Below are positions 4,051 to 8,956 of a stretch of 64,000 nucleotides of DNA, in pieces (the stretch's first letter is position 1; every line of letters begins with the position of its first letter). The stretch lies in NCBI GenBank assembly GCA_000004695.1, contig CM000152.2, forward strand, positions 32,001 through 96,000. The letters are read 5' to 3'. The notes below the pieces were generated by a model that saw only the letters and a list, made by a program, of their open reading frames with translations, was not told where the DNA came from and did not search any database. The DNA is from Dictyostelium discoideum. Lineage: Eukaryota. Position numbers and translations under genes: made by a program.

Positions 4051-5113
4051 ATGGTCAAGAAGGCACCAGCTAAAACAACTGAAATTGGAAAACCAACTAT
4101 TCGGGTGACCAAAAATAGTGAACCAAATATCGCAATTTTTTTACATCGTCATCATCATCAACATCGTCATCTGGTAGTGATGAATACTCAATGTATTCAT
4201 CATCATCATCATCACCACCATTATCTTCTGGTAATGAAGAATCCTCGATATATTCACCCCATACAACAGTGAAACCGAGTGGTATTTCAAAACTAGCCGC
4301 TCAACATTTAAAGAACCCAGCTCCAGCCACACCAGATTCAAAAGAAGCACCAAGGGTTTCAAGAACATTAAGATCCCAATGTATTAACATCATCCTCTTC
4401 ATCATCTTCATCATCATCGTCATCACCATTATTATCCTCTGGTAGTGAAGAACCCTCAATATATTCATACTATTCAAAAGTAAAACCCAGTGGTGTTTCA
4501 AAACCAGCCGCTCCATATTTAAAGAAACCACAAGAAAATTGGCCAGCTCCAGCAGCGCCAGGTTCAAAGGAAGCACCAAGATTACTAGATCTCCCAATGT
4601 ATTAACATCATCGTCATCATTGTCATCACCATCATCATTATCATCCTCTTTATCCTCTGGATATGAAGAATCCTCAATATATCAGCCTCTAGATCAGCAA
4701 ACCCCAGTGTTGCTTTAAAACCAGCTCCAAATAAAAAGAAGTCAGCACCAGCCCCTCCACAAACAAGGAAATCACCAAGGGTTTCACGATCAAATTCATC
4801 ATTATCATCATCACCATTATCACCATCATCATCACCATCATTACTGTCATTACAGTCATCACCATCATCCCTATCATTACCGTCATCACCAACACCATCA
4901 TCACCATCATCACCATCATCATCACCATCATCACCATCATCACCATCATCATCACCATCATCACCATCATCACTATCATCACCATCATTATCATCTCTAT
5001 CCTCCCCAAGAGCAAAGAGAGCAGCACCAACCCCTCTAAATTCAAAGGAAGCACCAAGAGTTTCAAAACCAAATTCAAATTCTTCCCCAAGAAAGAAAAA
5101 AAGAAAAATTTAG
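4051..5113 (+). other. putative N-terminal tail region of the H3-variant gene: ATG at 4051 (MVKKAPAKTTEIGKPTIRV..) followed by 3-4 tandem ~200-280 bp units, with frame discontinuities between units
   Basis: Each unit encodes SSG(N/S/Y)EE(S/P)SIY..KPSG(I/V)SK.AA..LK.PAPA.P.SKEAPR(V/L)S, separated by (TCA)n Ser/His/Ile-ambiguous runs. Repeat landmarks: ggtaatgaagaatcctcgatatattca at 4229, ggtagtgaagaaccctcaatatattca at 4441, ggatatgaagaatcctcaatatatcag at 4660; ..aaagaagcaccaagggtttca at 4341, 4567, ~4766 and 5046. Unique segments sit in frames 1,0,1,0,2 successively. The last unit (frame 2: SPSSPSSSPSS..SPRAKRAAPTPLNSKEAPRVSKPNSNSSPRKKKRKI*) stops 2 codons before the histone fold in frame 1. 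An (A)60 tract lies immediately upstream of the ATG. Confidence 0.4.
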
Positions 5114-5385
5114 TATTAAGAGAAATTAAGAAGCACCAAAAATCGGATAAGCTTCTTTTACCTCTACTTTCTTTTTCTCGATTGGCCAGAGAAATTTTGG
5201 ATGGTTTCGGCACTAATTTAAGAATCACTCCTGGTTGTCTTATAGCTCTTCAATATGCTTTTGAATCCCACATGACTTTAATATTGGAGAATTGTGGTAT
5301 TATGGCTTTTTATGGAAAAAGAAAAACCATTAATAGAAGTGATATGAGACTTCATTCGAGAATTTGTCCACTCTTTAAAAATTAA
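5107..5385 (+). CDS. histone H3 variant (divergent, CenH3-like) histone-fold domain; as given it is out of frame with the upstream tail by 1 nt at an A7 run (5093-5107)
   Basis: Frame-1 translation NLVLREIKKHQKSDKLLLPLLSFSRLAREILDGFGTNLRITPGCLIALQYAFESHMTLILENCGIMAFYGKRKTINRSDMRLHSRICPLFKN* aligns residue-for-residue with H3 alphaN-alpha3 ([84 protein letters not shown]). ORF-table entry 5182..5385 is part of it, with a TTG pseudo-start. One extra A in the A-run would fuse ..SPRKKKRK to NLVLREIKK. Confidence 0.75.
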   Translation, partial: NLVLREIKKHQKSDKLLLPLLSFSRLAREILDGFGTNLRITPGCLIALQYAFESHMTLILENCGIMAFYGKRKTINRSDMRLHSRICPLFKN

Positions 5386-5702
5386 AATACCCTCAAATAA
5401 TATATAAAAAAAAACATAATAAAAATTTAATTTAAAAAATAAAGTTATTTATATTTATAAAAAATTCCACAACTGTTCCTTTAATTTTTTTTTTTTTTAT
5501 TTTACTGAATTATTAAATAAACAATTAAATAAAAAAAAATAAATAATAAATAATATTAAATAAAAAAAAACTAAAAAAAAACAATAAATTATAGATATAT
5601 TAAAAAAAAAAAAGATTTTAGATAGAAATTAAAAGAAAGTAAGAATTGATAAATATATATTAGAAGCAAAGAGATAATTTTATTTCCTTTTTTTTTTTTT
5701 AT

Positions 5703-7178: not shown

Positions 7179-7335
7179 TTCTATTGTGGTGTTGCATCGT
7201 GGGTGAGTTAGTGGATTTGGATGGTGTTTTTTTAAAAGAAAAAAAAAATGAAAAAATTAAATTATTTTTTTTTTTTTTTTTTTTTTTTTTTTTTTTTTTT
7301 TTTTTTCAAATCATTTTTTGCAAGTAGCAATATCA

Positions 7336-8956
7336 ATGATAATTGTAAAACCTTATTGGGTCGATCATCATGGTAAATAGAATTTAAAAAATAAAAAATA
7401 AACAAAAACATAAAATTAGAAAATGTTTTAATCTTTTTTTTTTTTTTTTTTTTTTTTTTTTTTTTAACATTATGATACAGGAACACCAATATTTTCAATT
7501 GATGTGCACCCTGATGGTAAAAGATTAGCTACATGTGGAGGAGATTCAAATATAAAAATATGGAATATTGAACCAATATCCGATGAGATTATGGAAGATG
7601 ATGCTGATGATACAAGCAACAAAAGAACAACAACACCAACACCAAAATTATTATATTCAATTAATTATGCACATTCAAAATCAATTAACAGTATCAAATG
7701 GTCAAAAGATGGTAGATATTTAGCATCAGTTTCAGATGATAGAGAATGTATAGTTTGGACACTTTCACCATTTCAATCAGCAAATACACCAGAGATTTGG
7801 ACGAGTATAGTTTGCCTTAAAGGTCATAGTGCTGATATCACCGATGTTATTTGGTCAGCAGATAATCAATTTTTAGCTACTTGTAGTTTAGATAAAACAA
7901 TTTTAATTTGGGAAACTACTAAATTTGGTATCTATATATTTTATACTATTTATTTATTTATTTTTATTTATAATTCTTGTTATTCTAACTTTTTTTTTAT
8001 TTATTTTAGGAATTATAAAAAAGTTAGAAAAACAAGAAAAGTTTATAAATGGAATTACATGGGATCCAATGGGTAAATACTTGGTTTCACAATCAGATGG
8101 TTTGATATGTATTTGGAATACTATCAATTGGAATTGTGAAAAAGTAATTAAAGATGTTGTTGGTGGTTTAGATTTAAAATCTTTCTTTTTAAGATCAAGT
8201 TGGACACCAGATTCTAAATATTTTATATCAACTCAAGGTTTTAATAAAAATAATCATTCAGCTATATTAATAGGTAGAGATAATTTTATAAATAATCATT
8301 ATGGTAATCATAATGACAATGGTAATGATGATGGTAATGATGATGGTAATGATGATGGTAATGATGGTAATGATGATGGTAATGATGACACCTTTGAATT
8401 GGTAGGCCATACGGATGTAGTTTCAGTTTCAAAATGTTCTCCAATTATATTTAAAGATAATTCAAATAATTATTTTTCATTAATTTTATTAGGAAGTGTT
8501 GATTCAACATTCTCATTATGGTTATCACCACCTACTACTACTACTACTACTACTACCGATACCAATACCAATAATAGTATTAAGAGATCGCCACCTCAAC
8601 TTATAATGGTTTGTAAAGAAGTTTTTAAAAATACAATACAAGATGTTTCATGGTGTCCTGATGGTTTATCATTTTTTGTTTGTTCAATTGATGGAACTAT
8701 TGCCTATATATCATTGAAACTACATGAAATTAGTGATGGATCACTTCAACCTATCAGTCATAGAGAAAAACAACAATTCTTTAAAAAATCTTATAATTTT
8801 AATTTACCAAATGAAATAGAACTATTTATTCATAAAAGAAATCAAATACCAACTAAACCAATCACTAGAACTACCCAAGAAGTACTATCTACTCAAAAAC
8901 AGTCAACAACTTTAACTGGAAAGAAAAGAATAACACCAGTTACAACTACATATTAA
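7336..8956 (+). CDS. HIRA-like WD40-repeat histone chaperone (HIRA N-terminal beta-propeller homologue, ~476 aa), 3 exons: 7336..7372, 7481..7927, 8010..8956
   Basis: Exon 1 MIIVKPYWVDHH(G) with GTAAAT donor. Exon 2 (acag|) GTPIFSIDVHPDGKRLATCGGDSNIKIWN.. matches the HIRA N-terminus (MKLLKPTWVNHNGKPIFSVDIHPDG..ATGGQDGKIRIWN). The exon 2/3 junction (GTATCT donor at 7928, ..ttttag acceptor at 8008-9) gives ..WETTKFGIIKKLEKQEKFINGITWDPMGKYLVSQSDG, cf. HIRA LTWDPVGKYIASQADD. C-terminal ..GKKRITPVTTTY* resembles the HIRA RRRITP motif. Phases were checked against ORFs 7504..8076 and 7925..8956. Confidence 0.75.

Follow-up and report, generated by a model that had tools for sequence, protein, structure and literature searches.

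The window analysed here is a stretch of 64,000 nucleotides from chromosome 3 of Dictyostelium discoideum AX4 (assembly GCA_000004695.1, contig CM000152.2, positions 32,001 to 96,000 of the forward strand), with a base composition of about 20% G+C. At two places in it, separated by 54 kb, sequence derived from a variant of histone H3 lies beside sequence derived from the histone chaperone HIRA. Locus 1 occupies 4051-8956 on the plus strand, and locus 2 occupies 59596-60985 on the minus strand. The four elements are quite probably the remnants of an old local duplication at the DNA level, namely one live short HIRA gene, one HIRA relic, and two dead H3 variants. Three of the four are dead in every genome examined, and the locus pair, though real, is an ordinary trace of genes that were duplicated and then decayed. 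An earlier sequence-only reading of this stretch had claimed that the juxtaposition of an H3 variant and a HIRA-like gene recurs 54 kb away, and both juxtapositions are real. The elements on which the argument depends are the following.

4051-5106, plus strand: tail of the H3-variant pseudogene of locus 1, about four degenerate repeat copies
5107-5385, plus strand: histone fold of the same pseudogene (alpha-N, alpha-1, alpha-2, alpha-3), with no in-frame start
5703-7178, minus strand: gene X, an N-rich open reading frame (ORF) of 491 amino acids, divergent to the HIRA-like gene and outside the duplication
7285-7335, plus strand: leader of the HIRA-like gene with its promoter-proximal poly-T, where the copied segment begins on its 5' side (blastn match to 60985-60943)
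7336-7372, 7481-7927, and 8010-8956, plus strand: exons of the HIRA-like gene, 476 amino acids (seven-blade propeller, linker, and B-motif at the extreme C-terminus)
59596-59975, minus strand: h3v2 (DDB_G0277979, Q54Z07) read from its ancestral ATG (tail remnant, frameshift, basic patch and alpha-N end, deletion of about 19 codons, loop 1, alpha-2, alpha-3)
60470-60985, minus strand: dead 5' piece of the short HIRA paralogue, from the poly-T through exon 1 and intron 1 into exon 2 (about 80% of the latter)

Similarity between the two loci

The HIRA sequences of the two loci are clearly related, as 7285-7837 matches 60985-60470 on the minus strand with 79% identity over 557 columns (blastn, expectation value (E) about 1e-135). 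When the whole window was compared with itself, this pair was the strongest dispersed repeat, and the H3 pair was one of about five others. Both pairs link the same two loci and dispersed repeats are few; therefore, the double match is not due to chance. The two H3 copies have in common the derived residues SDKLLLP, AFES-M, and GKRKTI, which are absent from canonical H3. Their DNA similarity continues upstream of the fold through the basic patch and alpha-N (40 of 48 nucleotides), and a remnant of the tail unit is also recognizable (4199-4230 against 59919-59888, with 29 of 32 nucleotides matching). The spacers upstream of the H3 copies (3689-4075 against 60330-59949) align with about 64% identity and a score no higher than that of unrelated AT-rich DNA, and their homology is unsupported. 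Similarity is thus not confined to the HIRA fragment of roughly 330 bp and the H3 folds from which the sequence-only reading had started, since it includes promoter, exon 1, and intron 1 on the HIRA side and the upstream matches on the H3 side. Read in this way, the sequences support a common ancestry of locus 1 and locus 2. Both pieces of locus 2, H3 and HIRA, would go back to genes of the locus 1 type, and their recurrence would be a matter of common ancestry.

Genomes compared

Three lineages were compared, namely D. discoideum and two sibling genomes labelled “Dictyostelium cf. discoideum”, here called lineage 1 (locus 1 in L001, locus 2 in L005) and lineage 2 (locus 1 in L002). The sibling genomes are syntenic with D. 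discoideum at locus 1, with a DNA identity of about 84-96%. An independent D. discoideum assembly, GCA_054883475.1 (L003), served as a check for sequencing errors. Over 13.7 kb it differs from the window in the length of four A/T-rich tracts and in one substitution (9232), and in nothing else. The tracts, at window positions 3997, 7265, 7434, and 12914, are shorter in that assembly by 29 A, 11 T, 3 T, and an AAT, respectively. Gene models of the window match the AX4 proteins H3v2 (Q54Z07/XP_642045), SYF1 (Q54Z08), and racI (Q9GPR2) exactly. The neighbouring PARG gene, with a ratio of nonsynonymous to synonymous substitution rates (dN/dS) of 0.07-0.13, was taken as the yardstick of ordinary constraint.

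The HIRA relic of locus 2

The HIRA piece of locus 2 had been described as a relic of HIRA exon 2 at 60794-60468. It is a relic, but its extent is not limited to exon 2, as the real span is 60985-60470 and takes in promoter, exon 1, and intron 1. The intron donor has changed from GT to CT, and the sequence carries three stop codons and several frameshifting indels. Because promoter sequence and intron 1 are retained, the relic is an unprocessed copy made at the DNA level, and a retro-copy origin is ruled out on the same grounds. Its divergence (K) from the live HIRA-like gene is about 0.18 whichever of the three lineages is taken, and it has ancestral bases in common with the siblings. Being equidistant from the three live genes, it is about as old as the lineage split or older.

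Between racI and SYF1 in lineage 1, at the site orthologous to locus 2, only the first 160 bp or so of the relic are left, in two aligned pieces (L005 8935-9095). At the same site in lineage 2 the relic is undetectable, though the H3v2 orthologue is present. In D. firmibasis the counterpart of locus 2 contains nothing between SYF1 and the next gene. The racI model of lineage 1 (L005 8001-11133, 3.1 kb) encodes 351 amino acids instead of 205 and crosses both the relic and the H3v2 tail; it is probably racI fused with pseudogene sequence.

The H3-variant pseudogene of locus 1

An H3-variant gene had been proposed at 4051-5385. The H3 fold is indeed found at 5107-5385, but the intact ORF is not, and this copy is a pseudogene whose lesions differ between the two sibling lineages. 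Its tail is rich in serine, proline, and lysine and consists of a repeat unit in which a run of S is followed by SSG(N/S)EE, VKPSG..SKPAAP, and SKEAPRVSR. The internal DNA repeats of the tail (4196-4644 against 4407-4841) are 71% identical. The fold comprises the last 93 codons, scores 63 bits with the Pfam family Histone (PF00125, profile positions 34-121), and is 41% identical to canonical H3. In a three-frame translation, frame 1 is used by the first 30 codons and again by the fold, and the successive tail repeat copies are in frames 3, 1, 3, and 2; a read-through of 4051-5385 requires five frame changes, the junction of tail and fold included. Sequencing error as the source of these frameshifts is ruled out, since 4051-5385 is identical in GCA_054883475.1. 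Introns bridging the frames are ruled out as well, because the changes fall within a repeated coding unit.

Different parts of the gene have survived in the siblings. Lineage 1 keeps the fold with a gap of 5 codons in alpha-1 and has lost the tail, whereas lineage 2 keeps the tail with stop codons and has lost the fold. Between D. discoideum and lineage 1 the dN/dS of the fold is 1.19. A query made of the H3 tail plus fold found no homologues at E <= 0.001. Since Dubin et al. list two H3-like genes only, h3v1 and h3v2 (PMC2995078), the pseudogene of locus 1 appears to be undescribed so far.

The annotation of GCA_054883475.1 places a gene of 250 amino acids inside the frameshifted H3 tail (L003 13167-14089, window about 4191-5113) and extends gene X, there of 494 amino acids, antisense over the H3 fold (L003 14226-16154, window about 5250-7178). 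Both models look like artefacts of ORFs forced through a pseudogene.

The H3 copy of locus 2

The H3 copy of locus 2 is known as h3v2. Both primers used for it by Dubin et al. (2010) match the window exactly, the reverse primer MJD86 at the 3' end (about 59596-59626) and the forward primer MJD85 at 60285-60257, within the first exon of the AX4 model.

60256-60285, minus strand: AX4 h3v2 exon 1, MTSVNNNMTS, 10 codons, missing from lineage 1 through deletion and not alignable in lineage 2

The AX4 model joins 60285-60256 to 59835-59596 across an intron of 420 nucleotides, and the resulting 89 amino acids are exactly XP_642045/Q54Z07; the length given by Dubin et al. is 96 amino acids (PMC2995078), against 89 in the database model. 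Exon 1 of this model is probably an annotation device and not an ancestral exon. The conserved start is an ATG at 59975 (MNPTRGRQKRLQRSF...), which is also found in both sibling lineages. An H3 paralogue extending over 59975-59596 had been proposed earlier, and of this the H3 fold at 59835-59596 stands (Pfam 40.6 bits, profile positions 61-117 only), but the single ORF does not, as the ATG-bearing tail, which is shrunken, and the fold are in different frames in D. discoideum.

Judged against the locus 1 copy, canonical H3, and the lineage 2 orthologue, h3v2 has lost about 19 codons between LREIKR and ILWAW, corresponding to the end of alpha-N and most of alpha-1. The segment NLVLREIK is kept and matches 5083-5130 in 40 of 48 nucleotides of DNA. 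Because this match places NLVLREIK at the alpha-N end, the missing helix is alpha-1 and not alpha-N, and the paralogue is not “alpha-N-less” as had been stated; the alpha-N end is retained.

In lineage 1 the h3v2 tail is in one frame and consists of TVSPAKKP-type repeats up to ...KPSKRRNLVLREIKRLQ, with one stop codon, and the fold is deleted. In lineage 2 alpha-N and alpha-1 are complete (LALREIKRLQKSDKLLLPRLPFSRLVKEIL); the frame shifts at least twice, loop 1 contains an in-frame stop, and alpha-3 has suffered a deletion. The dN/dS of h3v2 against lineage 2 is 0.66, which is not significantly below 1. Thus h3v2 behaves as a pseudogene, disabled in D. discoideum and in both sibling lineages. 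Its decay agrees with the finding that H3v2 fused to green fluorescent protein (GFP-H3v2) is not nuclear (PMC2995078).

The short HIRA paralogue

The HIRA-like gene at 7336-8956 stands as first described. It has three exons and 476 codons for a protein with a HIR1-type propeller. The Pfam family Beta-prop_CAF1B_HIR1 (PF24105) is matched with 121 bits (cut-off 80.5). The poly-T of its promoter varies in length between assemblies. The exact 476-amino-acid sequence is absent from the protein collection searched. Its orthologue from a sibling lineage, P0001, served as query for the relative search, for the AlphaFold2 model, and for alignment numbering. A full-length query was swamped by WD40 and low-complexity candidates, and an N-terminal query gave 6 matches only. 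Two further features of the protein are of interest.

8309-8389, plus strand: (NDDG)n low-complexity insertion in a propeller loop, differing in length and composition in all three lineages
8894-8941, plus strand: HIRA B-motif QKQSTTLTGKKRITPV, predicted Asf1-binding hairpin, its C-terminal side cut by the stop codon

The (NDDG)n insertion had been noticed before and is present as described. The corresponding loop of the P0001 model has a predicted local distance difference test score (pLDDT) below 50, and such length variation is ordinary for Dictyostelium. The protein ends with ...GKKRITPVTTTY (also quoted as ...QKQSTTLTGKKRITPVTTTY). The Pfam motif HIRA_B (PF09453) scores 13.9 bits over motif positions 1-17 of 23, against a cut-off of 21 bits, the protein ending there. 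The motif core GKKRITP aligns with the B-motif of D. firmibasis HIRA, and columns Q442, G450, I454, and P456 (P0001 numbering) are invariant in an alignment of 12 sequences. As the sequence-only reading had it, the gene ends after the propeller and a short RITP tail. No Hira domain (PF07569) was matched in the 476-amino-acid protein with Pfam, and residues 464-1075 of D. firmibasis HIRA, used as query, had no match in any part of the window.

Both sibling lineages carry the gene intact (460 and 454 amino acids) and with the same exon structure, and the position of its stop codon agrees within a few codons across the three lineages. Its dN/dS of 0.36-0.38 is significantly below 1 (p about 2e-4). 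The gene is under relaxed purifying selection, with a constraint weaker than that on PARG.

Regarding its origin, the best single-domain relative of P0001 in an exhaustive search was the D. firmibasis Protein HIRA (A0AAN7TPF8, 1075 amino acids), which is 52% identical to it over residues 2-409 of the N-terminus and has a propeller, a full HIRA_B motif (37.9 bits), and a Hira domain (154.8 bits). In the short gene and in the D. firmibasis HIRA gene alike, intron 1 comes after 37 nucleotides and has the same phase, and intron 2 is at the same ET(T/N)KF position in both; the third intron of the D. firmibasis gene is missing from the short gene. Since introns 1 and 2 are shared and identity is 52%, the short gene would be a genomic duplicate of the 5' half of canonical HIRA in which these two introns were kept. 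On this comparison, the 476-amino-acid gene appears to be a lineage-restricted, truncated extra paralogue of HIRA rather than one part of a split HIRA. Yeast Hir1 and Hir2 are each full-length proteins, and for this reason the earlier analogy with a split Hir1/Hir2-type arrangement is unfit; a full-length HIRA with a Hira domain is also present in the genus. The UniProt entry HIRA_DICDI is presumably the full-length HIRA of D. discoideum itself. No paper on a Dictyostelium HIRA gene was found in the literature. The two-propeller architecture of HirA is conserved in amoebozoans (PMC2898643).

It might be asked whether the gene is instead an orthologue of CAF-1 p60/Cac2, where a propeller with a C-terminal B-like motif is the natural arrangement. 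The architecture is alike (PMC2898643), and PF24105 takes in both HIR1 and CAF-1 subunit B proteins. Nevertheless, this identity is scarcely credible and was rejected on sequence score, fold score, and intron positions. With phmmer, yeast Hir1 is ahead of CAF-1 p60 (CHAF1B) by 130 bits to 92. The best Foldseek match of the P0001 model (pLDDT 80) is the WD40 domain of Hir1 (8ghm), with a template modelling (TM) score of 0.85 and an E of 2e-30, against 2e-26 for CAF-1. Besides the 52% identity of P0001 to D. firmibasis HIRA over residues 2-409, the HIRA-like protein has the HIRA-type N-terminus MIIVKPYWVDHHGTPIFSIDVHPDG, and introns 1 and 2 of its gene are positioned as in HIRA.

One event or two

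The arrangement of the duplicated pieces has to be considered together with their age. On the coding strand, the H3 copy of locus 1 is followed by gene X (on the opposite strand) and then by HIRA, whereas at locus 2 the HIRA relic precedes H3. Outside the two separate matching segments, the flanks show no similarity beyond that of AT-rich background sequence. The K of the H3 pair is about 0.47, the same for first, second, and third codon positions, and that of the HIRA/relic pair is about 0.19. The ratio of H3 to HIRA divergence is about 2.5, whereas about 1.5 is expected from a single event when the constraint on the live HIRA gene is allowed for. With two matching segments only, reversed order, an uncopied gene X, and unequal divergences, the sequences do not support a collinear two-gene module. 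Of the segmental duplication of an H3v-HIRA module that had been proposed, with decay of the second copy, the shared ancestry and the decay hold and the collinear module falls.

A single segmental duplication, whose second copy decayed through deletions and rearrangement, is a serious possibility without being the probable course of events. The parents lie within 2 kb of each other and the copies within 0.5 kb, in a window with only about five dispersed repeats, and both similarities reach past the coding cores. Moreover, stretches of 200-500 bp have often been deleted from both loci in each of the three lineages, and the loss of gene X, of the 3' part of HIRA, and of the lineage 2 relic is therefore plausible. 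However, a single event has to accommodate the permuted order (H3 to HIRA against HIRA to H3), the lack of any trace of gene X at locus 2, and a gap between the two K values that is about 2.5-fold where about 1.5-fold is expected. It also has to account for an H3v2 orthologue without a detectable relic in sibling lineage 2.

Alternatively, an older duplication of the long-tailed H3 variant may have been followed by a second event in which a 5' fragment of HIRA was copied beside the H3 of locus 2. This course is rather unlikely, even if the different divergences of the H3 and HIRA pairs are in line with it. The same can be said of the relic, which is equidistant from the three live orthologues and occurs in D. 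discoideum and lineage 1 only, while H3v2 occurs in all three lineages. The second copying might have been by ectopic repair or template switching with the H3 homology as guide. However, an independent copy would very rarely land within 0.5 kb of H3v2 by chance, with an estimated probability of about 1e-4 to 1e-5 in a genome of 34 Mb. A simple extension of a conversion tract also misfits, as HIRA is 3' of H3 at locus 1 and the relic is 5' of H3 at locus 2.

Given the unequal divergence and the lack of a relic in lineage 2, the analysis leans toward two events or one complex event. The non-collinear route would have been one complex rearranged duplication or two linked events, and candidate complex routes are a circular intermediate, the copying of a tandem junction, and template switching.

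Some points weigh against the view that the four elements are remnants of an old local duplication of which only the short HIRA is alive. The dS among the three lineages is only about 0.1, which limits the power of the selection tests, and the divergence clock relies on short alignments, the Jukes-Cantor correction, and AT-rich DNA. That lineage 2 lacks the relic could be due to a deletion. The 80-codon ORF of the h3v2 fold is open in D. discoideum and may have a residual non-histone function. Finally, a full-length HIRA in D. discoideum itself is a prediction from D. firmibasis and from the literature on amoebozoans (PMC2898643).

Function of the short HIRA and significance of the locus pair

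The absence of the C-terminal domain bears on what the short HIRA could do. To judge from its family, the protein would bind the Hpc2/ubinuclein partner through its propeller and Asf1 through its B-motif. Lacking the C-terminal Hira domain, it would be excluded from the trimeric HIRA/Hir3 scaffold and would in that case be a monomeric adaptor or a competitor.

Replacement H3 is deposited by proteins of the HIRA family. A functional meaning had been suggested for the adjacency, namely a linkage through a shared control region. The short HIRA would then be a chaperone dedicated to the adjacent H3 variant and regulated together with it. Besides the general activity of the family, the selection on the short paralogue and its preserved core of propeller and B-motif speak for such a role. 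It is nonetheless very improbable, and for present genomes it is largely refuted. Both H3 variants are disabled pseudogenes in all three lineages, with dN/dS near 1. The region upstream of the HIRA-like gene, 157 bp in length and containing its promoter, is common to gene X and not to the H3 copy. No H3-like sequence accompanies the canonical HIRA gene of D. firmibasis at a distance of up to 6 kb.

It can also be imagined that the short HIRA originated as the dedicated chaperone of the adjacent long-tailed, CenH3-like H3 variant, outlived this client, and now serves another H3 variant. Such a history is very unlikely. In that case H3v1/CenH3 may be the present client, and we know of no dedicated chaperone of H3v1/CenH3 in Dictyostelium.

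The preferred reading, an old local duplication followed by decay, has consequences for the Dictyostelium histone inventory. It is corrected at h3v2 (Q54Z07), which is pseudogene-like, lacks alpha-1, and has a first exon that is not conserved. It also gains a third, undescribed long-tailed H3-variant pseudogene 54 kb from h3v2. In addition, a conserved truncated HIRA paralogue with only a propeller and a putative Asf1-binding motif represents a natural separation-of-function variant in a tractable organism. A histone-chaperone module of an operon-like kind finds no support.

Neighbouring genes and other repeats

One minus-strand gene had been placed between the H3 variant and the HIRA-like gene, and the ORF at 5703-7178 is indeed there. 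Gene X has no Pfam match, and no second copy of it was found within the 64-kb window with tblastn. Upstream of locus 1, part of an ORF of 896 amino acids (996-3686), at window positions 2657-3067, has copies of 91% and 99% identity upstream of the window. They lie at L003 4245-4649 and 5408-5644, about 3.4-4.8 kb before the window start, in two called genes. The region of the 896-amino-acid ORF thus contains a small local gene family.

Other repeats are found between the two loci. A direct repeat of about 400 bp (36909-37301 and 39034-39426, 78% identity, 2.1 kb apart) overlaps minus-strand ORFs for Cys-rich, signal-peptide-like proteins, which are apparently a tandem gene pair. The AT-rich segment 43480-44344 (11-13% G+C) can be aligned to its reverse complement with 65-74% identity along some 600-850 bp and is either a large imperfect palindrome or a low-complexity artefact. 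A short direct repeat (50278-50388 and 53795-53905) lies in AT-rich intergenic DNA, with 78% identity over 116 bp and a distance of 3.5 kb.

Comparison with known systems

Canonical HIRA and Hir1 (A0AAN7TPF8; yeast Hir1, PDB 8GHL/8GHM/8GHN) share with the short protein the propeller of the CAF1B/HIR1 type, the HIRA-type N-terminal sequence, and the B-motif core G(K/R)(K/R)RITP. Unlike them, the short protein stops inside the B-motif at residue 476 and has no PF07569, and its gene is without intron 3. Constraint on the short gene is relaxed (dN/dS about 0.37), and P0001 is only 52% identical to the HIRA of a congener. The short gene coexists with full-length HIRA instead of replacing it, the full-length gene being seen in the congener only. 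The likeness to CAF-1 p60/Cac2, in which one propeller is followed by a short C-terminal Asf1-binding B-like motif, is due to the truncation of HIRA.

Among the histones, the H3 copy of locus 2 is the H3v2 of Dubin et al. (2010, PMC2995078), to which the locus 1 copy is sister, the two having derived residues in common. A long N-terminal tail of non-histone type, as in the locus 1 copy, has been reported for H3v1/CenH3 (DDB_G0291185; PMC2995078).

As in other unprocessed pseudogenes and partial duplicates, the HIRA relic has promoter-proximal sequence, intron 1, stop codons, indels, a dead splice donor, and piecemeal deletion. What is unusual in comparison with ordinary partial duplicates is that pieces of two neighbouring genes recur together, and in permuted order.

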